Positions 9,135 to 60,601 of a stretch of DNA of 64,000 nucleotides are shown here, one piece after another. Source of the stretch: an uncultured delta proteobacterium (lineage in GTDB: Bacteria > Desulfobacterota > Binatia > Binatales > Binataceae). Position 1 is the first letter of the stretch. Every line of letters starts with the position of its first letter. The stretch covers positions 667,966 through 731,965 of the forward strand of contig CAWICC010000004.1 of NCBI GenBank assembly GCA_963834535.1, in the 5' to 3' direction. The notes under the pieces were generated by a model. The model was not told the origin of the DNA. It was given only the letters and a program-made list of their open reading frames with translations, and made no database searches. Made by a program: the position numbers and the translations under genes.

Positions 9135-9968
9135 CTACTTTTGGCATTGCGGACAGTAGAAGCTGGAGCGCTGGCCGATGACGACGGCGCGAATCGGCGC
9201 GGTGCATTCGAGGCACGGCTGCGCTTCGCGATCGTACACGCGGAGCTTGCTGGCGAAGCGGCCGGGCTGACCCTGCGAATCGCGATAGCTGCGAAAGGTG
9301 GTGCCGCGGCTGCCGATGGCCTCGCGGAGGACCTGGGCGGTGATGGCCGCGATGCGATCGAATTCGACGCGGGTAACGCGGCCGGCGCGGCGCGACGGAC
9401 GCACGCGGGCGCGGAAAAGAATCTCGGAGGCGTAGATATTGCCGACGCCGGCGACGATGCGCTGGTCCATCAGGAGGTTCTTGATAGCCGCCTTGCGCCC
9501 ACGCGAGACGGTCCAAAGGTAAGCGGCATTGAACTCCGCGGCGAAGGGCTCGGGGCCGAGGCCCCTTAATTCGGGGAGGTCCGCGACGTCGCCGCGCGCG
9601 CACAGGATCATCAGGCCGAAGCGGCGCGGGTCGTTGTAAACGAGGCGGCTGCCGTCGTCGAGCGCGAACTCGACGTGATCGTGGCGCGGGTCGAAGGGGT
9701 CACCGGCGAAATCGTGGCGGCGATGCGTAAGGCTGCCGGACATGCCGAGGTGGACCATCATGAGGTGGGCGCCGCTGAGCTCGATCATCAGATACTTGGC
9801 GCGGCGGCCGACGGCCTCGATGGTGCGGCCGGCGATCATCGCGGGCAAATCGGGCGCGATCGAGCGGCGCAGGCGCGGTTCCCTCACGATTGCGGAAACG
9901 ACGGTGCGGCCAACAGCAGAGCGGGCGAGAATGCGGCGGAGCGATTCGACCTCGGGCAGTTCAGGCAT
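9135..9968 (-). CDS. mutM: Formamidopyrimidine-DNA glycosylase
   Basis: 'MPELPEVESLRR' and the C-terminal zinc finger 'CLECTAPIRAVVIGQRSSFYCPQCQK'. Overlaps the rsmA stop by 8 nt. Confidence 0.93.
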   Translation of the reverse strand: MPELPEVESLRRILARSAVGRTVVSAIVREPRLRRSIAPDLPAMIAGRTIEAVGRRAKYLMIELSGAHLMMVHLGMSGSLTHRRHDFAGDPFDPRHDHVEFALDDGSRLVYNDPRRFGLMILCARGDVADLPELRGLGPEPFAAEFNAAYLWTVSRGRKAAIKNLLMDQRIVAGVGNIYASEILFRARVRPSRRAGRVTRVEFDRIAAITAQVLREAIGSRGTTFRSYRDSQGQPGRFASKLRVYDREAQPCLECTAPIRAVVIGQRSSFYCPQCQK

Positions 9969-42933: not shown

Positions 42934-44145
42934 ATGGGCGCGATTCATTACCGCATCATTGCGCTGTGTTTCGCGGCGTGGATTTTCGACTTTTACGATC
43001 TGATCCTTTACTCATTCATGATCGTGCCGATCGCGCGCGACCTCCATCTGAGTCAGACGGAGTCGTCGCTGACGCTCGGGCTGGCGCTTGCGATGACGGC
43101 GTTCGGCGGTGTGATCTTCGGCTTCGTCGGCGATCGCTTCGGGCGGCGGCCGACGATCATCGTGGCGGTGCTGGTGTACGGCATCGGCACGACGATGTGC
43201 GCCGCCTCGCACTCGTTGGTGGAATTGCTGCTGTTCCGATCGTTCACCGGGCTGGGTATCGGCGGCGAATGGGCGGCCGGGCAAAGCCTGGTCGCGGAGA
43301 CGGTCCCGCCCGCGCGGCGTGCGCGCTACGCGGCGTACGTGCAGGTTGGCGCGCCGCTGGGTGCGATGCTCGCGGCGGCGGCCGGCGGACATATCGAGCC
43401 GCTGATCGGGTGGCGCAACGTGTTCCTGATCTCGTCCGCGCCGTCGTTCATCGTGGCGGCAATCGTGTGGCGATGGCTGCCGGAGAGCGACGTATGGCTG
43501 CGGGCCGATCGCCGCCAATGGTTCAACGCGGACTCGCTCAGTACGCTGCGACCGTATCGGCGGATTATCGGCCTGCTCTTCGTCGTCTTGCTGGTGAACT
43601 CCGCGGCGTACTGGTTCACCTACACCTGGATGCCGAGCTACCTGCGGCTCGCGCGAGGGTTGACGCCGCAGGCGAGCGGCAACCTGATGATCTGGATGCA
43701 GACGGGGGCGTTGGCGGGATACGCGGCGTTCGGCGTGCTGGCCGATCGGTTCGGGCGACGTCCGGTTTTCTCGATCTATGCCTCGATGATGGGGCTGGGC
43801 TTGCTGCCGGCGACAATCTTCTGGGCGTGGGCGTCGGCGACGCCGGGCCTGATTCGCGGGGCCTTGATCGTAGCGGGCTTCGGCACCGGTATCTGGTCAG
43901 GCGCCGGCCCGATGATATCCGAGATGCTGCCGACCAGCGTGCGCAACACGGCATTAGGACTACTACTGAACGTCACCCGCGGGATTCAGTTTTTCACCCC
44001 GTTGATAATCACGGCGCTGAGCCCGCGATTGGGTTTTGGGCCGACGCTCGCGATTGGCGCGCTGTTCTCGTTTGTGGGAGCGATCATGGTCTGGGCGTTG
44101 CCGGAGACGCGCGGGCGGCGGATTACCGATCTCGATTCGGGCTAG
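42934..44145 (+). CDS. MFS transporter
   Basis: ATG at 42934. 'FGFVGDRFGRRP' and 'FGVLADRFGRRP' are the MFS loop 2-3 and 8-9 motifs. About 12 TM segments. Confidence 0.88.
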   Translation: MGAIHYRIIALCFAAWIFDFYDLILYSFMIVPIARDLHLSQTESSLTLGLALAMTAFGGVIFGFVGDRFGRRPTIIVAVLVYGIGTTMCAASHSLVELLLFRSFTGLGIGGEWAAGQSLVAETVPPARRARYAAYVQVGAPLGAMLAAAAGGHIEPLIGWRNVFLISSAPSFIVAAIVWRWLPESDVWLRADRRQWFNADSLSTLRPYRRIIGLLFVVLLVNSAAYWFTYTWMPSYLRLARGLTPQASGNLMIWMQTGALAGYAAFGVLADRFGRRPVFSIYASMMGLGLLPATIFWAWASATPGLIRGALIVAGFGTGIWSGAGPMISEMLPTSVRNTALGLLLNVTRGIQFFTPLIITALSPRLGFGPTLAIGALFSFVGAIMVWALPETRGRRITDLDSG

Positions 44146-44322
44146 CCGCGCACGCTTTCATCGGGCAGGCCTTCGGCGCGCTGGCTGCACGTCGCGAGAG
44201 CGACGCTATTTGGCTGGCGTTCGCTGAAGATCGCAATAGCGGCGTTTCGTGGCGAGCGTCCGCTGGGGGTCGTGAGCGCGGCGCTCCGCAGCGGGCGTCC
44301 TCTGAAGATCGCGAAAACGACG

Positions 44323-46302
44323 CTATTTGGCGGGAGTCGTTACGGTGTCGGCGCCGTCGAGGTAGGCGTGGCCGGCGTAGCGGGTGAGTTTGAGCGTGGT
44401 GGTGACGCGCGAACTCTTGAGAGCACGCGATACCGTCGCGATGAACGGAGTGCCTTGTGGTTGCGGGTCAACGGGATCGCGGATCCGCGAGGCGCGGGGG
44501 TACGAGCCACTCGCTTCGTGGGCATCGCGCTGATGAGCGTCGATGAGAGCAACTGACTGGCGCGGCCGGGTGCCCTGGGGGACGAGCGCTTCGTGGAGGA
44601 CGCGGCCTGTTACGCCCGGGCTTGGCGCCAGTCTAAGGATTTCGTCCATGGTCGGAGCGACGTCGGCATTTCCGGTCGGCGCGTAATCGACCATGGCGCG
44701 ACGGAAATCGGGACCGACCGCGGCGCAGAAGTTGTGCAGTTCGCGCGATCCGGCGGCTCCATGCATGCCCATCCCGGTCGAGAATGAGTCGGCGTCCGCA
44801 TACATGACACCTGGGATCGGACGCACCAGAGCGCCCGATTTGTTGGTCTGCACTTCGGGGCCATTGGGTCCGATCGTGAAGGCGGGATTCAGCGGACCGG
44901 TAAGCGCGCGATTATCGAGGTCGGGGAACTCGCGAAACGAGACGATCAGATCGGCGGCGCGCGCATTGGGTCCGAGGCCGAAGGCGGCCTGATTGAAGGT
45001 GCCTTCGATCGAACCGCGATAGCCGGATCCGCGATGAGCCGGTCGCGCCGGGTTTGATCCGCCGTCGCCGGAGCCATCGTGGCTGTCAGCACCACCGGCC
45101 GGTTTGGCACCGGCGGGATCGGGCGAGAAGATCGGTCCGCTCCAGTCCTGCGTGTCAGCGTAATCGACAATCCGCTGCATCATCTGATGGCGTTCGGCGG
45201 TGGTCGGGAAATCGGTTTTTGAAAGGTAAATCCAGTCACCGCCGGCGTCGGCGGCGACAACGACGTCCTTGCTGTCGATGGCCTTCTTCAAGCCCGCGGC
45301 GACGAGCAGTCGGGCGAGCGGAACGGTGGCCTTGATGGTGGCGAAGCCGTGATCGGAGACGACCACGAGATCGGTACGATCGGCGATGCCGAGGGCGTCG
45401 ATCGCGGTGCGCAGCGTCGCGAGATTGGCGTCACAGGCATGCAGGGCGTTCAGCGCGGGCTGCGTCCCGAGGCCCGCGACATGCTGCGTGATATCGGGAT
45501 TGTGCTGCCACAAGACGACCAGCGCGGGCTGGCTGCGACTGGAGGCGAGACGAGCCGCCGGCAGCGCCTCGGTGGCGGCGATCTTCGTGAACCAGGCGTC
45601 GCGCGCGATGATCGAAGAATAATCGGTGCGCGTCATCGGGGGCATCCGGGCGAACTCCGCCGTCATGGAGGAGGGCGCGGCCATATCGTCGGCGACGAAG
45701 ATGAAGTTTGGCGACGCCAGTGCGTTGTCTTGCAGATTAGAGAATTGGTCGTCGAACAGTAGCGTCGGGCCCTGCTTACCGATTACGGCGACGAATCCGC
45801 GGGAACGCTCGACCTGCTGAGCCGTGGTGTCCAGGCCGAGCAGATGGCCGTCGAAGATACGCGGGTCGTTCAGTTGAGCGAGGTACTGCGAATGCTCGAG
45901 GTTCAACGGGTCGCCGAGGAGCGGGGCGAACGGCAGGGGTGCGGCGCGAGCCAGATCGATCACGGGTGCGAGATACATCATGTCGCCGTAGATGCCGGAG
46001 TCGCCGGGCGACGCGCCGGTGGCGAGGCCGGCCGCATTGACCATGGTCAAGGTCGGATAGATCGAATGATGACGTGCGAAGCGCACGCCGGCGTGATCGA
46101 GTGCGAAGAGGTTGGGCGTGTTCGCCTGATCGACGAGGTCGGGGCGCAGCCCGTCCCATACCATCAGGACCACGATACGGCCGGCGGCAAGGTTGCCGTT
46201 CGCGGCCGCGTCACTGGCGCCAATTACAGTGCTGATAGTTACCGCAAGGGCGGTGAGAACGGTGAGGATTCGGAGCCTGGAGATTATGGTTGAAGAGCGC
46301 AA
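44323..46302 (-). CDS. Secreted alkaline-phosphatase-superfamily enzyme (nucleotide pyrophosphatase/phosphodiesterase-like)
   Basis: 'VLMVWDGLRPDLV', 'YPTLTMVNAAGLATG', 'VVVSDHGF'. Signal peptide present. TTG start. Confidence 0.78.
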   Translation of the reverse strand: MRSSTIISRLRILTVLTALAVTISTVIGASDAAANGNLAAGRIVVLMVWDGLRPDLVDQANTPNLFALDHAGVRFARHHSIYPTLTMVNAAGLATGASPGDSGIYGDMMYLAPVIDLARAAPLPFAPLLGDPLNLEHSQYLAQLNDPRIFDGHLLGLDTTAQQVERSRGFVAVIGKQGPTLLFDDQFSNLQDNALASPNFIFVADDMAAPSSMTAEFARMPPMTRTDYSSIIARDAWFTKIAATEALPAARLASSRSQPALVVLWQHNPDITQHVAGLGTQPALNALHACDANLATLRTAIDALGIADRTDLVVVSDHGFATIKATVPLARLLVAAGLKKAIDSKDVVVAADAGGDWIYLSKTDFPTTAERHQMMQRIVDYADTQDWSGPIFSPDPAGAKPAGGADSHDGSGDGGSNPARPAHRGSGYRGSIEGTFNQAAFGLGPNARAADLIVSFREFPDLDNRALTGPLNPAFTIGPNGPEVQTNKSGALVRPIPGVMYADADSFSTGMGMHGAAGSRELHNFCAAVGPDFRRAMVDYAPTGNADVAPTMDEILRLAPSPGVTGRVLHEALVPQGTRPRQSVALIDAHQRDAHEASGSYPRASRIRDPVDPQPQGTPFIATVSRALKSSRVTTTLKLTRYAGHAYLDGADTVTTPAK

Positions 46303-47531: not shown

Positions 47532-49472
47532 TTAGAGCAGGTTGAAGTTGTACTGGAACTGAGCCGTCAAGAGGCTCTGGCCCTTGAGGATACCGCCGGC
47601 CTGCGAGGTGCTCTTATCGCCGCCGAGGACTTCAATGGCCTGCAGCTTCATGAAGTACTTCTTGGTCCAGGGCGGATTCAACACCAGCGACGGGAACAGC
47701 AGGAACGCACGTCCTTTCGGATTGAAAATCATCGTCCAGGCCGGCTCGATGTCTTCCCACATCCACGAGGTGCCGATGTTGAACAAGGCGGAAACGTTAT
47801 TCTTGATGTTGGAAGTGTTTTCGATACCACCACCGGTCCAAGGGCCGAAGGTCTCGAACATGCTTTGTGACGAATCGAGCGCGATCTCGTCATAGAGTTC
47901 GACGTTCGCCGACAGATTGCCCGTGGCGGTGAGCCAGGGCGCGTACGCCTGATCGACATCGAGAGCGACCATCCAGCTCGCCATATCGGTGTAGCGGACC
48001 CCGCTGGGGCTTTCTACGGGATCGAAGCTGAGCACCGATTCATGGTTGGTGTACACGCCTTCCGCGCGACCAACGAACGGCAGATATTCCGAGACTGCCG
48101 AGGGCATCGGAATCGGCATATCGCCGGTCACACCGACCTTCTGCATCGGATCGAAGCGGGCGCGAAACTGGTTGGTGTACTTCTGCCAGTAGGTGTTGGG
48201 ATAGAGATTCCACCCGTTGAAATAGAAGGCGGTCAATTCCGCGCCACCGACCAACGTATGGTAGCGAATGCCTTCTTCCCAGTTGCCGACGGTGGTGGCT
48301 GGAATTTTCCATTGGCCAACGTCAACCGCCGCACCGCTGCCGGTCTGAGGACAAAAGCTCCGCAGGCGCTTGGGCACGGGATTGAAGGGCTGTCCGTTAG
48401 CACCAAGGTTGGTGCAGTAGAAGAACTCGTTGGAAAGCGGCGCTCCGATCAAACGTGCGTTTTGAACGGGATTTCCGTTGTATGGAGGATAGATTCCGCC
48501 ACTACCAGGCGCGACCGCGGTTCTTCCTGGATAGAAGGGACCGGCGTTACTTAGGTGAGCGCCGAAACGTCCGGTGGGATCGAAGCCGACGCCTGCGGGG
48601 AAGCCGTTGTTGACGCTGCCGCCGTTGACGTTACACTCGCCGTCGTAGCGATGATCGGCGTAGTCGCAACTGTTCCACATCGGCTGCAGGCGGGGATCCA
48701 GGATGCCCTCAAGGAAGTTCGACTCGAACGGTCCCCACTCGGGCAGATTCCAGATCGGATGGATCATCCATTGGGGAATACGCGATTGCTCGAGGTTGGC
48801 GAAGCCGAAGGCCCAGGTCGTATCCTGAGGATTGACGACGTCACCGACGCGGAAGGCGAGCGACTGTCCCCAGACGACGATCTGATTGCCGACGTAGGTG
48901 GTGACGGGGCCGGTTTTGTTCTGCCACCAGGCATCGCGGATGTTATACTGATTGTAGAACGCGTTTGAGTACTTGCCGAAGCCATTCGCGCTATTGAAGG
49001 CGTACGGCGGCTCATAAACGAACCATTCGCGCATGAAGAAGCTGTTGTTCTCGTTGAGGCGGTAGTTTTCGTCCACCTGCAGCCAGGTACGCGAAACCGC
49101 CAGGTTGTTGCGGCTCGCAGTGAACTCGCGCAGAGCCGATGGGTTCTGCCACATACCGAAGGTCTGGCTCAAGAAGCCCGAAACGTGAATGCCTTCAAAC
49201 CAGCTTTCCTCCGGCGCACCGCCGCCCGAGGAATCCGCCAGCACCGAGCCGGATGGCGCCGTGATTGGCAGGACCGAGCCGGATGGCGCGGTGATTGGCA
49301 GGACCGACGGAGTAGCGCCGGTCACGTTCAAGCCCTGAGCGGGCATTGCCGACAAATCGCCGGCCCTTGATTTTCCAGCACAGAGTCCAACGATCGCGAG
49401 CGCCAAGCCGAGCGCCGCGACCTTTTTCCTGACTCCCCCTGATGAACACGCTCCGCGCACTTCAGTCTCCAT
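47532..49472 (-). CDS. Outer-membrane beta-barrel protein, DUF1302-like
   Basis: GGGAGGA SD. Signal peptide 'KKVAALGLALAIVGLCAGKSRA'. 'NQIVVWGQSLAFRVGDVVNPQD' resembles the DUF1302 signature. Aromatic- and Gly-rich with alternating strands. Confidence 0.6.
   Translation of the reverse strand: METEVRGACSSGGVRKKVAALGLALAIVGLCAGKSRAGDLSAMPAQGLNVTGATPSVLPITAPSGSVLPITAPSGSVLADSSGGGAPEESWFEGIHVSGFLSQTFGMWQNPSALREFTASRNNLAVSRTWLQVDENYRLNENNSFFMREWFVYEPPYAFNSANGFGKYSNAFYNQYNIRDAWWQNKTGPVTTYVGNQIVVWGQSLAFRVGDVVNPQDTTWAFGFANLEQSRIPQWMIHPIWNLPEWGPFESNFLEGILDPRLQPMWNSCDYADHRYDGECNVNGGSVNNGFPAGVGFDPTGRFGAHLSNAGPFYPGRTAVAPGSGGIYPPYNGNPVQNARLIGAPLSNEFFYCTNLGANGQPFNPVPKRLRSFCPQTGSGAAVDVGQWKIPATTVGNWEEGIRYHTLVGGAELTAFYFNGWNLYPNTYWQKYTNQFRARFDPMQKVGVTGDMPIPMPSAVSEYLPFVGRAEGVYTNHESVLSFDPVESPSGVRYTDMASWMVALDVDQAYAPWLTATGNLSANVELYDEIALDSSQSMFETFGPWTGGGIENTSNIKNNVSALFNIGTSWMWEDIEPAWTMIFNPKGRAFLLFPSLVLNPPWTKKYFMKLQAIEVLGGDKSTSQAGGILKGQSLLTAQFQYNFNLL
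49243..49308. repeat. In-frame 30-bp tandem repeat (2.2 copies) inside the OMP gene
   Basis: accgagccggatggcgc[c/g]gtgattggcagg occurs twice, plus a partial accgac. It encodes 'SVLPITAPSGSVLPITAPSGSVL'. Confidence 0.9.
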
Positions 49473-52239: not shown

Positions 52240-52728
52240 TCACTTAATCTGCTGGGGTTCCAAACAGCAGTGCGCCGCCTTTTCCTGCGCGGCAGGCGTC
52301 AGGGTGAGCACCGGGCAGGGCGCGGTCCGCAGAACTTCCTCGGCGACGCTGCCAAGAATCAAATGAGACAGGCCCTTGCGGCCGTGGGTTTTCAATACAA
52401 TCAGGTCGGCGTCAACTTCGCCGGCGACGCGCACCACAGCATGGGCCAGTCCGCGGTCCGAGGCCAGGCAGGTGTGGATAACGGTCTTGACGCCCTCGAG
52501 GTGACGCGCCGCGATATCGTTGAGGGCCTTCTCGGCCTTCTGCTCTTCCGGCGTATGTTTGCCTTCCTCGACATCGGGTTCGCCGAACGCCTGGAGCATC
52601 GGCACGACATGCAGCAGGTGGAGCGTAGCGGCATGCGTCAAGGCGATTTGCCGAGCCATTCCCAACGCCACGAGCGAAGGGTCGTCGAATTGAATGGGAG
52701 ACAGGATCGATCGGTATGGATAAACCAT
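52240..52728 (-). CDS. Universal stress protein (single UspA domain)
   Basis: ATG at 52728 after an AGGAGG SD. 'DLIVLKTHGRKGLSHLILGSVAEEVLRTAPCPVLTL'. Confidence 0.88.
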   Translation of the reverse strand: MVYPYRSILSPIQFDDPSLVALGMARQIALTHAATLHLLHVVPMLQAFGEPDVEEGKHTPEEQKAEKALNDIAARHLEGVKTVIHTCLASDRGLAHAVVRVAGEVDADLIVLKTHGRKGLSHLILGSVAEEVLRTAPCPVLTLTPAAQEKAAHCCLEPQQIK

Positions 52729-52855: not shown

Positions 52856-53719
52856 CTAGCCGTCTTGCTCGACGACCTCAACCGCGACGCTGATAGTTTG
52901 CTCGCCGCCACCGAGGGCGACGCCATTAACCGGCGGCACATCCGAGTAATCGCGTCCCCAGGCAATGGTCACGTGCCTGGCGGCGGGCATCACGTCGTTG
53001 GTGGGATCGAAATCGAGCCAGCCGAAGCCGGGGCAATACGCCGAGACCCACGCATGCGACGCCTGGGCGCTGGCCGATTGCCGCGCGAGGCGAACGTAGC
53101 CGCTGATGTAGCGCGCGGGCAGGCCACGCGATCGCATGCAGGCGATCATGACGTGGGCGAAATCCTGGCATACGCCGCTGCGCTTTTGCAGAACCTGGTC
53201 GATGGGAGTGGATACGGTGGTCGCGCGCTGATCGTATTTAAAATCGGTAAAGATGCGGTGACAGAGGTCCATCGCCGCTTCGAGCAAAGGGCGGCCCGCC
53301 GGGAACGACGGTGCAGCATAGGCAGCGAAAGCGGGCGTGATCGACACCCGGGGAGATTCATAGGCGAACTCCAGCGCGTCAAAACTTTCTTCCGTTTCGT
53401 GTTTGCTGACCTCAAGCGCCACCTGCTCCCACGGCGGGGTCAGCGCCGGATGCAACGCTTCGACGGGGTGCCGATCGACGACGCTGGTGGAAGTGATAAC
53501 GAGGGTTTCGTGCGGTTCCTGGATCGAGAAATGGGCGACCGGATTGCCGAAATAATCATCGCGCGTCGCCAGCGATTCGGGCGCCGGGTCAATCGCGAGA
53601 TGGTGCTCGATGGGCGACTGATTACGATCCGCGCGGGGCGCCAGGTGGACCTCGGTGTGCGAGACTGAAACCGGGTTGCTGTAGCTGTAAGTGGTTGTAT
53701 GGGTTACACGCAGCGCCAC
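52856..53719 (-). CDS. Transglutaminase-like cysteine protease family protein (Bact_transglu_N + transglutaminase core)
   Basis: 'ALRVTHTTTYSYSNPVS'. Cys-His-Asp triad contexts 'GVCQDFAH', 'SHAWVSAY', 'LDFDPTN'. GTG start. Confidence 0.9.
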   Translation of the reverse strand: MALRVTHTTTYSYSNPVSVSHTEVHLAPRADRNQSPIEHHLAIDPAPESLATRDDYFGNPVAHFSIQEPHETLVITSTSVVDRHPVEALHPALTPPWEQVALEVSKHETEESFDALEFAYESPRVSITPAFAAYAAPSFPAGRPLLEAAMDLCHRIFTDFKYDQRATTVSTPIDQVLQKRSGVCQDFAHVMIACMRSRGLPARYISGYVRLARQSASAQASHAWVSAYCPGFGWLDFDPTNDVMPAARHVTIAWGRDYSDVPPVNGVALGGGEQTISVAVEVVEQDG

Positions 53720-53750
53720 GATCTAAACCTCAATTCGAAGTTTTCGCGTT

Positions 53751-56276
53751 TCACGGGGCATACAGTTGCGGCGCCGCGACTGCATGATCGAAGTATCCAC
53801 GCGTCAGTGTCTCGGAGAGCAACGGCAGCTCCACCGCGAGCCGGGTCACGAGATTTTCCAGATTGATCCAGTGTCCATTTTCATCAGGGCGCACCAACTC
53901 CGCCGCTTCCGCGACCTGCACGGCGGTGAGCAGGCGCACCGCCAAGCGCCATTCGGGGGGACGATGAGTCATCGAAACGCTCTCGGGCAACTGGTCGATA
54001 TCCTCGCGCAGGCGCGCGAGCTGAAAGGCCGCCGATCGCGGATTGGCCTCGTCGAGCAAGAGCAGATCGATCACAAGATTCTCCTGCATCGAGGTCAAAT
54101 AGCGCGACCGGTAGGTGAGAGAACTGTCGGCGATTTCGAGCAGGACCTCCAACTGCCCGCTGTCAGTGGCAGGTTGATAACCCAGCCCGCAGCGAATGAG
54201 GTCCACCAGTTGGATCGCGCGCTCCAACCGCCTCCCGATATCGAGAAAGCGCCAGCCATGGCCGCGCGTCATGCTTTCCATCACCAGGCCGCTGAAGGCC
54301 GAGAGCGTGATGATGAAATGATCGAGCAGACTGGTGGCGGCGCTGATGCGCAGCGGTTCATCGGGCGGCGGAGTGGAAAATTCCTGATCGAAGTGGTTGA
54401 GAATCTGCCAGGCGTCGGCGGATATGCGATCGCGCAAGAGCCACGCGACGCGGCGCACCTGATGCAGGTTCCAGCCGAGGCCGCCGCGCGATTCGGAATC
54501 ATAGATCATCGCGAGCAATTGACGTTCGGGCGACGCCGTGGACTTCGGGTCCATGCCGAGATGCCCCAGGGCGGCCAGCACGCGGTAGCCGGCCTCGATG
54601 CCGGCCGTCCGCAAGGGGTCGGACTCCTGCGAAACGCGCGAGAGAATGGCGCGTGCGACCCGCACTACCATCTCGACGCGCTCGACATAGCGTCCGAGCC
54701 AGAAGAGGTTATCGGCGACCCGGCTCGGCAGATCGATAGTCGCGCGGTTCACCTCGATTGCAGCGGCTTCCGGACGGAGCAGGCTGAATTCCGCCATCGG
54801 CTGATCGCCCAAGACCCAGGTATCCTTGCTGCCGCCGCCGTGCTGCATGGAGACGACCAGGCTGTCGAGCGAAGTGGTGACGCGCGTCAATCCGCCCGGC
54901 ATCACGGTATAAGAGTCGCCATCGGCCACCAGGTAAACCCGCAAGACAAAGTGGCGCGGCTGCAGTTCACGCTCGTTCCAGGCGGGAACGGTCGCGAGAG
55001 CGACCTGCTCCTGGGCCACATAGTCGGCAGGAAACGCTCGCATCTCGGTGACCAGCTTTTCACGTTGGCGGGCGCTCAACCGAGCGCCGAAGATGGGCTC
55101 ATGGCGATGGTCGGGGAAGGCCGGTTTGATGACCAGCCTGGAGAGATTTTCGACGACGTGAGCCAGCGGGTCGGGCTGGCCGCACCACCAGGTCGCAACC
55201 GTCGGCATTTTGAGTTCTTCGCCGAGAATGTGGCGGCACAAATGAGGCAGGAAAGCGGCGGGAGCGGCCGATTCGATCAACCCGGAACCGAGCGCATTGG
55301 TGACGGCGACGTTGCCCATCCGCGCGGCCTGCAGCAGACCGGCGACGCCAAGTATCGAGTCTTCGCGCAACTCAACGGGGTCGCAGAAGCTGTCGTCCTG
55401 GCGGCGGATGATGAGATCGACCGGCAGCAGGCCGCCGAGCGTCTTCAGAAAAACGGAATTCTCGCGCACCGTGAGGTCGGCGCCTTCGACCAGCGTGAAG
55501 CCCAGGTAGCGGGCCAGGAACGCGTGCTCGAAATAGGTCTCGTTATATGGTCCCGGAGTCAGCAGCACGATGCGCGGATTCTCGCGGTTGGGTGGCACCA
55601 GGCTGAGCAGAGTCTCGCGATAGACTTCGAAGAAGCGCGCCAGCCGCCGCACCTGGGCCGCGCGGAAAACGTCGCCGAGCACGCGCGTCGAGACCAGCCG
55701 GTTTTCGAGGGCATAGCCCGCCCCCGATGGCGCCTGGGTGCGATCGGCCAGCACCCACCACTTGCCGTCGGGTGCGCGCGCGATGTCCGCGGCATAAGTG
55801 TGCAGGTAGATTCCGCGCGGCACCGACACTCCGGCGCAGGGCCGCAGGAAACCGTCGTGACGGAAAACCAGTTCGGGCGGCAGCAAACTGCTGCGGAGCA
55901 ATTTGCGGGGCCCATAGAGGTCGGCGAGGATCGCGTTGAGCACGGTCGCACGTTGGCGCAGAGCGATTTCGATCCCGTTCCACTCGCGACTGTCGATTAC
56001 CAGCGGTACGGGGTCCAGCGGCCACGGCCGATCGGTAGCGGCTGGATCGCCATAGACGTTGTAGGTAACGCCGTTTTCGTGCAGCAGGCGGCGGCCCTCC
56101 TGCCAGCGGCCCAGGAGGCCGTCGGGGCCAATGGCGGAGAGCGAATCGAACAATGCATTCCAATGCGGTCGAATCTTCCCGTTGGCCGCAACGAGTTCGT
56201 CGTAATAGGCGGAGTTGGCCTTGTACTGCCACGCCGGGGCAGTATCCTCAGCGCGTTCGGTTGATCCCAGATTCAT
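53751..56276 (-). CDS. Circularly permuted type-2 ATP-grasp protein fused to an Alpha-E domain
   Basis: 'IVLLTPGPYNETYFEHAFLARYLGFTLVEGADLTV' is the CP ATP-grasp signature. The C-terminal half has the two ER motifs 'FWLGRYVERVE' and 'DIGRRLERAIQ'. Confidence 0.88.
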   Translation of the reverse strand: MNLGSTERAEDTAPAWQYKANSAYYDELVAANGKIRPHWNALFDSLSAIGPDGLLGRWQEGRRLLHENGVTYNVYGDPAATDRPWPLDPVPLVIDSREWNGIEIALRQRATVLNAILADLYGPRKLLRSSLLPPELVFRHDGFLRPCAGVSVPRGIYLHTYAADIARAPDGKWWVLADRTQAPSGAGYALENRLVSTRVLGDVFRAAQVRRLARFFEVYRETLLSLVPPNRENPRIVLLTPGPYNETYFEHAFLARYLGFTLVEGADLTVRENSVFLKTLGGLLPVDLIIRRQDDSFCDPVELREDSILGVAGLLQAARMGNVAVTNALGSGLIESAAPAAFLPHLCRHILGEELKMPTVATWWCGQPDPLAHVVENLSRLVIKPAFPDHRHEPIFGARLSARQREKLVTEMRAFPADYVAQEQVALATVPAWNERELQPRHFVLRVYLVADGDSYTVMPGGLTRVTTSLDSLVVSMQHGGGSKDTWVLGDQPMAEFSLLRPEAAAIEVNRATIDLPSRVADNLFWLGRYVERVEMVVRVARAILSRVSQESDPLRTAGIEAGYRVLAALGHLGMDPKSTASPERQLLAMIYDSESRGGLGWNLHQVRRVAWLLRDRISADAWQILNHFDQEFSTPPPDEPLRISAATSLLDHFIITLSAFSGLVMESMTRGHGWRFLDIGRRLERAIQLVDLIRCGLGYQPATDSGQLEVLLEIADSSLTYRSRYLTSMQENLVIDLLLLDEANPRSAAFQLARLREDIDQLPESVSMTHRPPEWRLAVRLLTAVQVAEAAELVRPDENGHWINLENLVTRLAVELPLLSETLTRGYFDHAVAAPQLYAP

Positions 56277-56395
56277 CCCTCCCCAACGCTCGTGACAGCG
56301 CGATCGAACTCGAGAAGGCTATCACGTAGCATTCCTGACACGCACTTTGACATATTGCGCAACAAATGGTGCAGGGAAATTCTGGCGCGCGCCGG

Positions 56396-59300
56396 CTATG
56401 ACAGGCGCGGCGGACCGGGCCGCCGGCGCAAATCGAGCGTTAAGGGAAACTGCGGATTCGGCTCGGCCGGCGGTATTACCATCGGTCCGGGGGTATGGGC
56501 CAACTTGGAGAAGCGGGAATTGCGCCGCGCTTCAGCCTCGTATGCATTTACCGGGAAGGTTTCGTAGCTGAGGCCGCCGGGATGAGAAACATGGTAGGCG
56601 CAGCCGCCAATCGAACGCCCGGTCCAGGTATCGATCAGGTCGAAAATCAGCGGGGCTTGTACCGGAATCGTCGGATGCAGGCATTGCGGCGGCTGCCATG
56701 CGCGATAACGGACACCCGCCACCCATTCGCCCTGCGTACCCGTTGGATGGAGCGGGATGCGGCGGCCGTTGCAGGCGGCGATATAACGTTCGCTGGTCAT
56801 GCCAACGACGCGGGCCTGGACCCTTTCCACCGATGAATCGACGTAGCGCGCGGTCCCGCCCGCTCCAGGCTCTTCGCCGAGGACGTACCAGGGCTCGGTC
56901 GCCTGCCGAATTTCGAGTTCGATGCCGAGGTAATTGACGCGGCCAAATACCGGGTAACGGAACTCGAAGTGCGGCGCGAACCATTCCGTCTCGAACGGAA
57001 AGCCCGCCCCCTTCAAGTCCGCCAGGACGTCGGCAAAATCGCGCGCAATAAAGTGGGGCAGCATGAAGCGATCGTGAAGCTGCGTATCCCAGTCGATCGG
57101 CGGCCGGGTGTAGGGGTGCTGCCAGAACCACGCGACCAGAGCCCGCACCAGCAACTGTTGCGTGAGGCTCATGCGTGAATGCGGCGGCATGTCGAATCCG
57201 CGCATCTCGAGCAGTCCCAGACGGCCAGTCGGGCTGTCGGGGGAGTAGAGCTTGTCGATACAGAATTCAGCGCGATGGGTATTGCCGGTCACATCGACCA
57301 GCAGATGGCGAAAGATGCGATCGACCAGCCACGGGGGACAGACGCCGTCACTCGGATCGGGAACCTCGCTGAAGGCGATTTCGAGTTCGTAGAGACTGTC
57401 TTTGCGGGTCTCATCGATACGCGGAGCCTGGCTGGTCGGCCCGATGAACATGCCGGAGAACATGTACGACAGCGACGGATGATTCAGCCAGTAGGAAATC
57501 ATGCTGCGCAGCAAGTCCGGCCGGCGCAGAAATGGACTGTCGGCGGGAGTGGCCGCACCCAGCGCGAAATGATTGCCGCCGCCGGTGCCGGTGTGGCGTC
57601 CGTCAACCATGAACTTCTCGGTGCCGAGTCGGCACCGGCGCGCCTCTTCATAAATGGCGGTGGTATTTGCGACCAGCTCGGCCCAGTCGTGCGCTGGCTG
57701 AACGTTCACTTCGATCACCCCGGGATCGGGCGTGACGCTGAAGTGACGAATACGATAGTCGAAGGGCGGGGTGTAACCCTCGATCACAACCGGCATTTTC
57801 AAGTACGCGGCGGTGTTCTCGATGGCGGCCAGCAATTCGATGTAGTCGTCGGCCAGCTTCAGCGGCGGCATGAAAACATGCAGGCGTCCGTCGCGCGGCT
57901 CGACGCATAGCGCGGTCCGAACCACCCACGGAGCCGACTCGCCGATTCCAGGCATGCGATCGCGGCTGCGATCGCGCTTGAGCTGTATGGAGGGATCCTG
58001 CGGTGACGCGTGTGTCGGTTCTGGCAGCGGACCGCGATCCGCCATCGGATCGAGCGGAATTATCTGCGGAACCTCATCCGGGGCTACCCACGGCAGGCTC
58101 GGCAAGGGCAGGCGCAAGCCGAGCGCGGAGTCTCCGGGTATCGCGTACAAATGCTGCCCGCGCAGCAGCCACAGTCCTGACTGCCACTCGGGACCGTGCG
58201 CGCCGTCCTCCCGTTGGATCGGAAGCACATAGCCTACGGGTGTCTTCAAGCCCCGATCGAAGACGCGCCGCACGCGCTCGCGGTCGCCGGCATTTTCGAG
58301 TCGATTGTCGGCCGCGTCGACGTTGATCGGCAAATTGCGCTCGCGCTCGAGATAGTGCACAGGATCCTCGAAGGCGGGTTTGACGTACTCGGGGTCGAGG
58401 CCGAGGCGGCGCGCGAGCATTTCGGCAAAGCGCTGGGCTTCGCCCGGTCCAAAGTTACCGTCCTGTTCAGGCTGGGCGAGCAGGGCGCGATCCTGCCATA
58501 GCGGAACACCGTCTTTGCGCCAGTAACAGCTCAGCGCCCATCGTGGGAGCGGCTCGCCGGGATACCATTTGCCCTGCCCGAAATGCAGCAATGCACCGGT
58601 GGCAAAGCGTTCACGCAAGCGATCGATCAAGCGCTCGGCGAGCACCCGTTTATCGACGCTTAGTGCGTCATAATTCCACTCCGGGCCCTCCATGTTGTCG
58701 ATTGATACGAAGGTCGGCTCGCCGCCCATGGTGAGCTTGATATCGCCGGCATCGATTGCCGCATCGACTTCGTAACCGAGCGCCTCTATTCGCTGCCATT
58801 GTTCTTCGGTGTAAGGCAGCGTCACGCGCGGATCTTCATGGATCCGAGAAACCGACATTTGGTGGGCAAACTCGACCTCGCAGGGACCCACCATGCCCGT
58901 CACCGCAGCGGCAGAGCCCGGTTCCGGTGTCGCCGCGAGCGGTATATGACCCTCGCTCGCAAACAAGCCCGAGGTGGCGTCCAGGCCGATCCAGCCGGCG
59001 CCGGGCAGATAGACTTCCGCCCACGCATGAAGATCGGTGAAGTCCTGCGTCGGCCCTTCCGGACCCTCCAACGGTTTCTGGTCTGGTTTGAGTTGGATCA
59101 GGTAACCCGAGACGAAGCGCGCGGCAAGCCCCAGATTGCGCAGGATTTGCACCATCAGCCACGCGCTGTCGCGGCACGATCCGCAATTCAGTTCGAGCGT
59201 TTCCTCGGGCGTCTGGACGCCGGGCTCCATGCGGATGAGGTAGCGGATGCGTTGCGCCAGATCCTGGTTAAGACCCACCAGGAAATCGACCGTCCGTTGC

Positions 59301-59713
59301 TCCTTGCGGCTGACACCCGCCATCAGGGCCTTCAGATGACTGCCGGCCGGCAGCGGTTCCAGATAGGGCGTCAGGTCTTTGCCGAGCCACTCGTCGTACT
59401 TGAAGGGAAACTGTTCCGCGTATGGTTCGAGGAAAAAATCGAACGGATTTATAACCGTCATTTCCGCCAGGAGATCGACTTCGACCGTGAAGTGATCGAC
59501 CGGATCGGGAAAGACGACGCGGGCCAGGTAGTTATTCTCGGGGTCTTGAAGCCAATTGAGGAAATGGCCGGGCGGGTCAATTTTCAGCGCGTAGGCTGTG
59601 ATCGGGGTGCGGCAATGCGGCGCTGGCCGCAACCGAATTACCTGCGGTGATAATTCGACCAGCCGGTCGTACCGATAGACGGATTTATGATGCAGAGCGA
59701 CGCGGATCGACAT
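56396..59713 (-). CDS. Large transglutaminase-family protein with a DUF2126 C-terminal region (1105 aa)
   Basis: 'MSIRVALHHKSVYRYD' (Bact_transglu_N). Triad contexts 'CGSCRDSAW', 'LHAWAEVY', 'GLDATSG'. About 800 aa of DUF2126-type sequence follow. Confidence 0.88.
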   Translation of the reverse strand: MSIRVALHHKSVYRYDRLVELSPQVIRLRPAPHCRTPITAYALKIDPPGHFLNWLQDPENNYLARVVFPDPVDHFTVEVDLLAEMTVINPFDFFLEPYAEQFPFKYDEWLGKDLTPYLEPLPAGSHLKALMAGVSRKEQRTVDFLVGLNQDLAQRIRYLIRMEPGVQTPEETLELNCGSCRDSAWLMVQILRNLGLAARFVSGYLIQLKPDQKPLEGPEGPTQDFTDLHAWAEVYLPGAGWIGLDATSGLFASEGHIPLAATPEPGSAAAVTGMVGPCEVEFAHQMSVSRIHEDPRVTLPYTEEQWQRIEALGYEVDAAIDAGDIKLTMGGEPTFVSIDNMEGPEWNYDALSVDKRVLAERLIDRLRERFATGALLHFGQGKWYPGEPLPRWALSCYWRKDGVPLWQDRALLAQPEQDGNFGPGEAQRFAEMLARRLGLDPEYVKPAFEDPVHYLERERNLPINVDAADNRLENAGDRERVRRVFDRGLKTPVGYVLPIQREDGAHGPEWQSGLWLLRGQHLYAIPGDSALGLRLPLPSLPWVAPDEVPQIIPLDPMADRGPLPEPTHASPQDPSIQLKRDRSRDRMPGIGESAPWVVRTALCVEPRDGRLHVFMPPLKLADDYIELLAAIENTAAYLKMPVVIEGYTPPFDYRIRHFSVTPDPGVIEVNVQPAHDWAELVANTTAIYEEARRCRLGTEKFMVDGRHTGTGGGNHFALGAATPADSPFLRRPDLLRSMISYWLNHPSLSYMFSGMFIGPTSQAPRIDETRKDSLYELEIAFSEVPDPSDGVCPPWLVDRIFRHLLVDVTGNTHRAEFCIDKLYSPDSPTGRLGLLEMRGFDMPPHSRMSLTQQLLVRALVAWFWQHPYTRPPIDWDTQLHDRFMLPHFIARDFADVLADLKGAGFPFETEWFAPHFEFRYPVFGRVNYLGIELEIRQATEPWYVLGEEPGAGGTARYVDSSVERVQARVVGMTSERYIAACNGRRIPLHPTGTQGEWVAGVRYRAWQPPQCLHPTIPVQAPLIFDLIDTWTGRSIGGCAYHVSHPGGLSYETFPVNAYEAEARRNSRFSKLAHTPGPMVIPPAEPNPQFPLTLDLRRRPGPPRLS

Positions 59714-60166
59714 ACGTAAGGAGCAGTGCTACCGGAATCACCATAATGAGTCACCTGCCAGTATGCGAAATTCGCGCCGTACTCGATGCTTCGCCATGGA
59801 AAACACGAGTCGAAAGGCCGCGATCGCGCGATCAGGGCGAGATCGCCAGTATGGTCGTGCATCCTGGTCTCAATCGCTCAATCTGAGGCCGCGGCGACAG
59901 ACCTCGCCAGGATTCGCCCGCGACCTGGCGATGACGCGAGACTGTGCGATATTCCCTGGCGGATGCGCGCGGATTAGGCACTTGTGCGAGGCGTAGCCGA
60001 CGCGGCGCTCTAATCCCGCTCGCCGGGCCCCGACGGCCGGAATCACTTATCGTTGCAACCGGCCCGGCTCAATGCGAATTCTAGAGCGAGATCGATCGGT
60101 GCACACCAGGACTGGAGCTCTCTCCATTGTACGCGGCCGCGCGAGAACGCTGGCGGAGAATTCAAG

Positions 60167-60601
60167 ATGACGGAGATTGAACGTTTGACGGCACTCGAGG
60201 AAATCGAGCAGGTCAAGGCACGGTACTTCCGCTGCATGGACACCAAGGATTGGGCCGGCTTCGAGGCCGTCTTTACGGCGGATGCGACGGCGGATTATTC
60301 GTCGGAGGGCGACCCTAAAGAATGGTCGGCGGCGGGCGTCGCAAAGATCGTGGCTTTGGTGCGCAAAGCGGTGGGTCCGGCGATCACAGTTCATCACGGA
60401 CACATGGCTGAGGTGGAGTTAGTCTCGGCCACCAGCGCACGAGGCATTTTTGCGATGGAGGACCTGATCTGGTGGCCGGAGGGCGCGCGCCGCAAGACCC
60501 TGCATGGTTGGGGTCATTACCACGAAACCTATGAAAAGATTGACGGAAAATGGTTGATCAAAACGCTCAAACTGACCCGGCTACGGGTCGAAGAGACCTG
60601 A
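60167..60601 (+). CDS. SnoaL-like / NTF2-family protein
   Basis: 'LEEIEQVKARYFRCMDTKDWAGFEAVFTADA', 'HYHETYEKIDGKWLIK'. ATG at 60167 after GGAGAA. Confidence 0.78.
   Translation: MTEIERLTALEEIEQVKARYFRCMDTKDWAGFEAVFTADATADYSSEGDPKEWSAAGVAKIVALVRKAVGPAITVHHGHMAEVELVSATSARGIFAMEDLIWWPEGARRKTLHGWGHYHETYEKIDGKWLIKTLKLTRLRVEET

Follow-up and report, generated by a model that had tools for sequence, protein, structure and literature searches.

We examined a 64-kb stretch of DNA from an uncultured Binataceae bacterium (hereafter the window, which served as the reference for all comparisons) and focused on three of its genes, g1, g2, and g3. These genes almost certainly form an operon for soluble, cytoplasmic proteins and constitute the Rv2566-type, DUF2126-containing version of the widespread circularly permuted (CP) ATP-grasp / Alpha-E / transglutaminase-like amidoligase system. 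Nothing at the locus departs from this known kind, and the system was described in 2008–2009. The wider CP-ATP-grasp / Alpha-E / transglutaminase system has been treated by Valas and Bourne (PMC3235984) and by Iyer et al. (2009), the latter as presented in PMC6376114 and PMC5666114. The Rv2566-type system (Iyer, Burroughs, and Aravind, Biol Direct 2008, PMC2588565; Mol Biosyst 2009, as far as those later papers relate it) has the same architecture in all three proteins as the window triad, and a small open reading frame (ORF) for a tag is lacking from the published system and from the window alike. There is no material difference between them, and the window copy is 57–73% identical to proteobacterial and acidobacterial copies.

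The window locus is therefore one more instance of a known operon and nothing beyond that. The module is nevertheless among the more widespread conserved bacterial operons whose reaction remains to be found; it ranges from Acidobacteriota to Pseudomonas and Burkholderia, and Rv2566 of Mycobacterium tuberculosis is the published g1-type protein. Solving its chemistry would fill a gap in nitrogen-starvation physiology and would give Alpha-E and DUF2126 a function. The useful outcomes of the present analysis are a corrected parts list, comprising two putative ligases and two thiol enzymes, and the finding that the stress genes on either side are irrelevant.

Two putative ligases and two thiol domains

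All three genes lie on the minus strand, with gaps of 119 nucleotides (nt) between g1 and g2 and 31 nt between g2 and g3, and these positions agree exactly with a first-pass annotation made from the DNA letters. Pfam searches placed every domain of g1, g2, and g3 where that annotation had proposed it (Table 1), including Bact_transglu_N (expectation value, E, 2e-27) and Transglut_core (E 8e-23) in g3, and the ATP-grasp and Alpha-E portions do reside in a single fused gene. These matches lie well outside what chance would give. The sequence motifs on which the proposal was built were also present in the translations, namely CGSCRDSAW, LHAWAEVY, and GLDATSG in g1, LLTPGPYNETYFEHAFLARYLGF, GRYVERVE, and GRRLERAIQ in g2, and GVCQDFAH, SHAWVSAY, and DFDPTN in g3. 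The catalytic Cys-His-Asp triads were intact, as had been reported: C180/H229/D245 of g1 was invariant in 51 homologues, and C184/H222/D238 of g3 was 100% conserved in 76 sequences. In the Alpha-E domain, R529/E532/R533 and R682/E685/R686 were at least 93% conserved (76 sequences). No transmembrane segment, signal peptide, or hydrophobic N-terminus was predicted in any of the three proteins, which are therefore predicted to be cytoplasmic. None of them matched an NCBIfam model.

The ATP-grasp half of g2 aligned end to end with PDB entry 3n6x, a "putative glutathionylspermidine synthase" (E 4e-93), and an AlphaFold2 model of g2 (predicted local distance difference test score, pLDDT, 80) matched the same entry in Foldseek with a template-modelling (TM) score of 0.82. 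The next Foldseek matches were glutathione and homoglutathione synthetases of the eukaryotic type (E 5e-10 to 1e-6), followed by the E-64 pathway ligase Cp1B and E. coli YgiC/YjfC. As judged from the model, the nearest solved relatives of the g2 ATP-grasp domain are all small-molecule amide ligases. The Alpha-E half was modelled as a helical bundle for which Foldseek returned no structural match in the PDB. Experimental evidence on a related enzyme comes from the Anbu operon of Yersinia bercovieri, whose ATP-grasp protein frees phosphate from ATP (PMC6376114).

The sequence GGGGAGGG precedes the g2 ATG. In an 89%-identical relative (L081:9543-11984), the public gene call starts g2 28 codons later, giving 813 amino acids (aa). 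Asp26 and Glu27 of g2 were invariant in 48 homologues, however, and the longer 841-aa reading is therefore supported over the shorter one.

The C-terminal part of g1 requires the largest correction to the first-pass annotation, which had taken DUF2126 as anonymous sequence and had described a single ligase bracketed by two peptidases. By profile analysis, Iyer, Burroughs, and Aravind described Rv2566 as two fused domains, one transglutaminase-like and the other a carboxylate-amine/ammonia ligase of the glutamine-synthetase-like superfamily (PMC2588565), with the DUF2126-type C-terminal region as the ligase. The ATP-grasp ligase and the thiol domains of the earlier description stand, but DUF2126 has been published as a second ligase, and the locus would therefore encode two ligases and two papain-fold domains. 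In our AlphaFold2 model of g1 (pLDDT 72), the N-terminal part matched the putative cysteine protease 3isr in Foldseek (E 1e-10), an entry also matched by g3 (E 5e-12). For DUF2126, about 30 of the top 50 Foldseek matches were glutamine synthetase or GmaS (gamma-glutamylmethylamide synthetase), with E values of only 0.07–1. The glutamine-synthetase-like nature of DUF2126 thus rests mainly on the published profile analysis, and the predicted fold is weakly supported by our modelling. PDB sequence searches with g1, both as a single sequence and as an 18-sequence profile, returned the transglutaminase part only, and when three DUF2126 segments were scanned against Pfam under relaxed settings, DUF2126 was the sole match. 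Alignment of the g1 profile with E. coli GlnA and YbdK by hhalign gave probabilities below 3%, a weak test because the effective number of sequences (Neff) in the profile was only 2.0. A literature search for "DUF2126" found no paper.

Counted by exhaustive search at E <= 1e-30 with clustering at 50% identity, the g1 family comprises 2,951 clusters, many of which are fragments; a word-indexed search gave at least 8000 candidates. The closest database matches, 89–92% identical, came from metagenome-assembled genomes of Candidatus Binataceae. Some family members of ~800–840 aa (representatives P0380, P0408, and P0412) aligned only to g1 residues 229/277/287–1100; they are largely DUF2126-only proteins without most or all of the N-terminal transglutaminase-like region, and some may be fragments.

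Conservation of the module and its nitrogen regulation

To define the neighbourhood, we took the best 80 of at least 599 matching stretches from a scan of one genome per species. These 80 loci, 57–73% identical to g1, came from Acidobacteriota, Planctomycetota, Verrucomicrobiota, Myxococcota, Desulfobacterota, and Alpha-, Beta-, and Gammaproteobacteria, and included 37 from Pseudomonas as well as others from Burkholderia, Azospirillum, Marinobacter, and Dechloromonas. Their six-frame ORFs were searched with the window domains, and the 75 loci with at least 3.6 kb of downstream sequence were counted. The order g1, fused CP-ATP-grasp–Alpha-E gene, small transglutaminase-like gene, all on one strand, was found in 72 of the 75, spanning at least seven phyla. 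Domains and neighbourhood thus agree with the earlier placement of the locus in the conserved system. The exceptions were one locus (L037) with the last two genes convergent and two loci that lacked both of them.

Translational coupling of g2 and g3 is suggested by the junction between them, which in related loci mostly measured −4 to +10 nt. The g1–g2 gap had a median of ~60 nt and a range of −23 to 264 nt, apart from four outlier loci with gaps of 1–4.6 kb. Three of these outliers are Bryobacterales (L001:13309-14353, L008:14302-16319, and L074:11216-15859) and still keep the triad order. Unrelated genes were inserted between g1 and g2 according to Pfam, a putative cyclase in L001 and a CarboxypepD_reg protein in L074; the ORF inserted in L008 had no Pfam match. 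Because the two gaps are short and variable, they leave no room for a conserved small ORF, and a tag gene of this kind in or beside the triad was ruled out.

Beyond the triad, no other flanking family recurred across phyla in the 80 loci when ORFs overlapping g1–g3 were masked. The first-pass annotation had placed the triad in a stress context because a Usp gene lies downstream of it and a SnoaL-like gene upstream, but none of the 80 loci had either gene within 10 kb of the triad. Synteny with SnoaL, Usp, BNR, and formyltransferase genes was preserved in the 89%-identical Binataceae contig; in 77%-identical Binataceae contigs the triad alone was preserved, with no Usp and no SnoaL. Because only the triad is conserved and its flanks vary, it is an autonomous, self-contained three-gene module, and its stress-gene context is incidental.

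Some relatives carry a second set of these genes. Immediately upstream of g1, 22 of the 80 loci had an unfused CP-ATP-grasp and Alpha-E pair, sometimes with a transglutaminase gene (for example L057:6274-9904, L022:7274-9988, and L071:7472-9962). The copy downstream of g1 was always fused, and the triad's own copy was fused in 73 loci; the two arrangements therefore represent distinct paralogous sets. They co-exist as five- or six-gene clusters in Burkholderia, Marinobacter, Planctomycetota, and Verrucomicrobiota. The 64-kb window contained no second CP-ATP-grasp/Alpha-E set.

The unfused arrangement recalls the Anbu operon of Pseudomonas, Yersinia, and cyanobacteria (PMC3235984, PMC5666114, PMC6376114), which has paralogous CP-ATP-grasp, Alpha-E, and transglutaminase-like parts. 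That operon differs in having separate ATP-grasp and Alpha-E genes together with Anbu itself, whereas the window has a fused gene, no Anbu, and an additional transglutaminase–DUF2126 protein. The description of the locus as an Anbu-less form with a fused ligase was upheld: no Anbu homologue was present in the 64-kb window, nor beside the triad in 77 of the 80 loci. In the remaining three, an Anbu homologue (matching PDB 5loy, E 9e-31) adjoined the triad in convergent or divergent orientation, so that in some lineages the triad does have Anbu beside it.

Several lines of evidence tie relatives of the module to nitrogen limitation. First, in Burkholderia cenocepacia H111, genes I35_5080-83 (DUF404/407, DUF403, transglutaminase-like, and large transglutaminase-like) were down 6- to 9.4-fold in an ntrC mutant and were sigma-54 dependent under nitrogen limitation (PMC5491218). 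This layout is identical to that of the Burkholderia loci in our set, in which a −24/−12 element, AGGCACG-N4-TTGC, immediately precedes the cluster. The first-pass annotation had stated that neither substrate nor phenotype was known; its statement about substrates holds, but the NtrC/sigma-54 dependence of the Burkholderia cluster does provide a functional context. Second, at ~53 nt ahead of the g1 GTG start, nearly all of the 37 Pseudomonas loci carried TGGCAYAAGTCTTGCG or a variant close to it, with GCACC...GGTGC half-sites 60–110 nt further upstream, and Pseudomonas loci had a conserved leader, GGCTCGCAGGAGGCACGCCGTG. From this promoter arrangement, the DUF2126 triad of Pseudomonas is predicted to be under NtrC/RpoN control; we found no published report of the element. 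Similar −24/−12 matches occurred in Dechloromonas/Azonexus and in some Verrucomicrobiota and Planctomycetota loci. Overall, upstream regions scoring at least 9/11 were found in 41 of the 80 loci compared to 3.4% of shuffles, although the Pseudomonas loci are mutually non-independent. Third, nitrogen limitation raises PP_2686-88 of Pseudomonas putida 11- to 37-fold (PMC7801951); these genes appear to make up the paralogous operon of the Anbu type. Finally, domains of the system co-vary with urea-metabolism domains in marine metagenomes (PMC3597751).

In the window, the presumed promoter region between g1 and the divergent SnoaL gene contains a weak −24/−12-like element, CGGCGCGAATTTCGCA, whose score was matched by ~16% of shuffles and is thus at chance level; the element was kept in the 89%-identical relative L081 and was not kept in L082. 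A consensus scan found no sigma-70 consensus in the region upstream of g1. Terminator-like matches in the scan were fewer than in shuffles and fell within coding sequence, and the scan as a whole is uninformative. We infer regulation in the Binataceae host from the better-characterized relatives, and the NtrC/sigma-54 pointer indicates the conditions under which a phenotype might be sought in tractable species.

Candidate functions

Our tentatively preferred reading, to which we would assign slightly less than an even chance, is that the module makes a small amide or peptide conjugate in the cytoplasm in two steps, and also hydrolyses or transfers it, as part of the nitrogen economy. Two ATP-dependent carboxylate-amine ligases of unlike fold, the glutathione-synthetase-like CP-ATP-grasp of g2 and the glutamine-synthetase-like DUF2126 of g1, would work in succession and jointly build the conjugate, for example a gamma-glutamyl- or peptide-amine-type compound. 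The arginine-rich Alpha-E domain, being fused to the ATP-grasp, could hold an anionic substrate or partner, and the two Cys-His-Asp transglutaminase-like domains would hydrolyse or transfer the amide bonds that the ligases make. Substrates, reaction order, and the role of Alpha-E in this scheme are what we infer from the parts. In proteobacteria, the system would belong to the NtrC/sigma-54 nitrogen-limitation response, and its role is therefore probably in scavenging nitrogen or re-allocating amino groups.

Four considerations favour this reading. First, the structural neighbours of the ATP-grasp domain are small-molecule ligases. Second, a tag gene is absent. Third, glutathionylspermidine synthetase/amidase (GspSA) likewise has a thiol amidase-type domain joined to a ligase, and a make-and-break pair at this locus would follow a similar logic. 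Finally, the Burkholderia regulon partners of the cluster are nitrogen-scavenging functions. The first two of these also disfavour the write/erase tagging module that the first-pass annotation had proposed.

Comparison with characterized enzymes sharpens these parallels. In GspSA, an ATP-dependent ligase forms an amide bond and a papain-type thiol amidase of the same enzyme cleaves it, and the g2 ATP-grasp domain structurally matches both 3n6x and the GspSA homologues YgiC/YjfC. GspSA has a CHAP amidase, by contrast, whereas the amidase of the window is transglutaminase-like and is fused to DUF2126 instead of to the ATP-grasp; the comparison is best regarded as a resemblance in logic with no implication of membership. 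PuuA/PuuD and GmaS offer a second parallel, a glutamine-synthetase-like ligase with a thiol hydrolase in the service of nitrogen acquisition, and GmaS was among the weak Foldseek matches of DUF2126. Their hydrolase is a class I amidotransferase rather than a transglutaminase-like enzyme, however, and the triad adds an ATP-grasp ligase and Alpha-E.

Other observations weigh against the small-conjugate reading. To our knowledge, no substrate, product, or phenotype has been described for any member of the system. Transglutaminase-like and Bact_transglu_N proteins frequently act on proteins, and identity of ~60% across phyla would fit a conserved macromolecular substrate equally well. Every glutamine synthetase or GmaS match of DUF2126 in Foldseek was individually non-significant, and sequence-level searches did not confirm the putative fold of this domain. 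Ligase activity of g2 is likewise a prediction, made from alignment and model. A sigma-54/NtrC link is not demonstrable in the window itself. In addition, the sole assay on the M. tuberculosis counterpart Rv2567, of gamma-aminobutyric acid (GABA)-trehalose synthesis in crude E. coli lysate, was negative (preprint), and Rv2567 as a GABA-trehalose synthetase was set aside.

The best-surviving alternative, which we nonetheless consider unlikely, is pupylation-like tagging, in which the ligases would attach an amino acid or short peptide to protein side chains and the thiol domains would remove or transfer it; the tag would perhaps mark proteins for turnover during nitrogen starvation. According to PMC6376114 and PMC5666114, Iyer et al. 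(2009) proposed tagging for the system at large, and the Pup ligase PafA also has a glutamine-synthetase-like fold, with DUF2126 assigned to the same carboxylate-amine ligase superfamily as PafA/Dop (PMC2588565). The usual protein substrates of transglutaminase-like domains, the very high conservation, compatible with a macromolecular target, and the Anbu proteasome homologue that adjoins the triad in three of the 80 loci can also be read in its favour. The triad differs from PafA/Dop, however, in having no Pup-like gene, proteasome, or Mpa, and no sequence-level similarity to them was detectable. No conserved small ORF lies in or beside the triad, in keeping with the published finding of no Pup-like ORF near Rv2566-type genes (PMC2588565); the nearest solved ATP-grasp relatives all have small-molecule substrates; Anbu is missing from the window and from most loci; and the Anbu-operon proteins formed no detectable complexes and had no detectable peptidase activity (PMC6376114).

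A bolder form of the idea appears improbable, namely that the triad is an unrecognised protein-modification system whose ligases, under nitrogen starvation, assemble a tag, either a short non-ribosomal peptide or a gamma-glutamyl one, and place it on proteins, with the thiol domains transferring or erasing it and some lineages handing the tagged proteins to Anbu. If this were true, pupylation would have a second analogue, and a far more widespread one.

Equally improbable, in our estimate, is a scheme in which the ligases extend a nitrogen-rich chain, polymeric or oligomeric and comparable to cyanophycin or poly-glutamate, and the thiol enzymes depolymerise it. The ATP-grasp fold does serve polymer-forming ligases, expression is tied to nitrogen limitation, and the arginine-rich Alpha-E domain could bind a polyanion. 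Induction by nitrogen limitation, however, suits mobilisation of a polymer more than its synthesis, yet two ligases are co-expressed; moreover, the structural neighbours are single-step small-molecule ligases and are not CphA- or RimK-like, and no such polymer has been reported.

We give little credence to a reading modelled on what has been claimed for M. tuberculosis Rv2569c, in which the transglutaminase-like proteins would be exported and would cleave or cross-link proteins of the envelope or of a host. Rv2569c is the presumed counterpart of g3 in M. tuberculosis. Cell-wall-associated activity of Rv2569c on casein, fibronectin, and E-cadherin has been published (PMC11081392), and the view of the first-pass annotation that the system lacks biochemistry needs qualifying to the extent that the homology holds. 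The activity was blocked by 4-(2-aminoethyl)benzenesulfonyl fluoride (AEBSF) and phenylmethylsulfonyl fluoride (PMSF) and was insensitive to E-64 and N-ethylmaleimide (PMC11081392), a profile that misfits a Cys-His-Asp papain-fold enzyme and may reflect a contaminant. Moreover, neither a signal peptide nor a transmembrane segment is predicted in g1 or g3, and their tight coupling to two ATP-dependent ligases implies that they work in the cytoplasm. The same paper calls Rv2569c a serine protease and does not mention a transglutaminase-like fold.

Least credible of all is a general stress module comprising the triad and the neighbouring Usp and SnoaL-like genes, for although Usp follows closely on the same strand behind a strong ribosome-binding site, SnoaL_4 lies divergently upstream, and this synteny is kept in the 89%-identical relative, neither gene accompanies the triad in the 80 loci or in the 77%-identical Binataceae relatives, and both were dropped as functional partners on these comparative data.

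Feature coordinates and other open reading frames

Table 1. Positions of the triad, its domains, and associated features. Coordinates refer to the window unless a locus is named; aa ranges refer to the encoded protein.
Feature	Coordinates	Strand	Remarks
g1, transglutaminase-like (papain-fold) + DUF2126 fusion	56396..59713	-	1105 aa; ATG start
g1 Bact_transglu_N beta-sandwich, aa 6-83	59465..59698	-	Pfam E 4e-22
g1 Transglut_core, aa 130-246, with Cys180-His229-Asp245	58976..59326	-	Pfam E 2e-17
g1 DUF2126, aa 277-1096	56426..58885	-	Pfam E 0, entire profile length; putative glutamine-synthetase-like carboxylate-amine ligase
g2, predicted CP-ATP-grasp ligase + Alpha-E fusion	53751..56276	-	841 aa; ATG start
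g2 CP_ATPgrasp_2, aa 91-466	54879..56006	-	Pfam E 3e-153, profile positions 1-373/374
g2 Alpha-E, aa 516-829; all-helical, arginine-rich, two ER motifs	53790..54731	-	Pfam E 3e-69
g3, transglutaminase-like, with Cys184-His222-Asp238	52856..53719	-	287 aa; GTG start
Divergent g1/SnoaL intergenic region, presumed triad promoter region	59714..60052	.	presumed from position
Weak -24/-12-like element CGGCGCGAATTTCGCA	59764..59779	-	66 nt upstream of g1 ATG; 8/11 consensus positions
Usp gene	52240..52728	-	127 nt downstream of g3; strong AAGGAGG ribosome-binding site
SnoaL_4 gene	60053..60601	+	upstream of g1, divergent
Pseudomonas -24/-12 element TGGCAYAAGTCTTGCG	L010-L073; locus coordinates ~9947-9962, e.g. 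L013		conserved across loci
Anbu homologue	L008:19780-21114	-	PDB 5loy match
Anbu homologue	L074:19305-20045	-	PDB 5loy match
Anbu homologue	L077:574-1305	+	PDB 5loy match

PADLOC models gave zero matches to g1, g2, or g3, and a role in anti-phage defence was dropped because none of the three proteins was matched. Two further ORFs of the window, at 47532-49472 (minus strand, 646 aa) and 42966-44387 (plus strand, 473 aa), are unrelated to the triad and had no Pfam match at E <= 1e-3 / 1e-4. Antisense to almost the whole of g2 lies an 832-aa ORF (53766-56264, plus strand), and similar ORFs are found opposite g1. Such shadow ORFs cluster across related loci because the underlying coding DNA is conserved, and we treat the 832-aa ORF as an artefact of GC-rich coding sequence.

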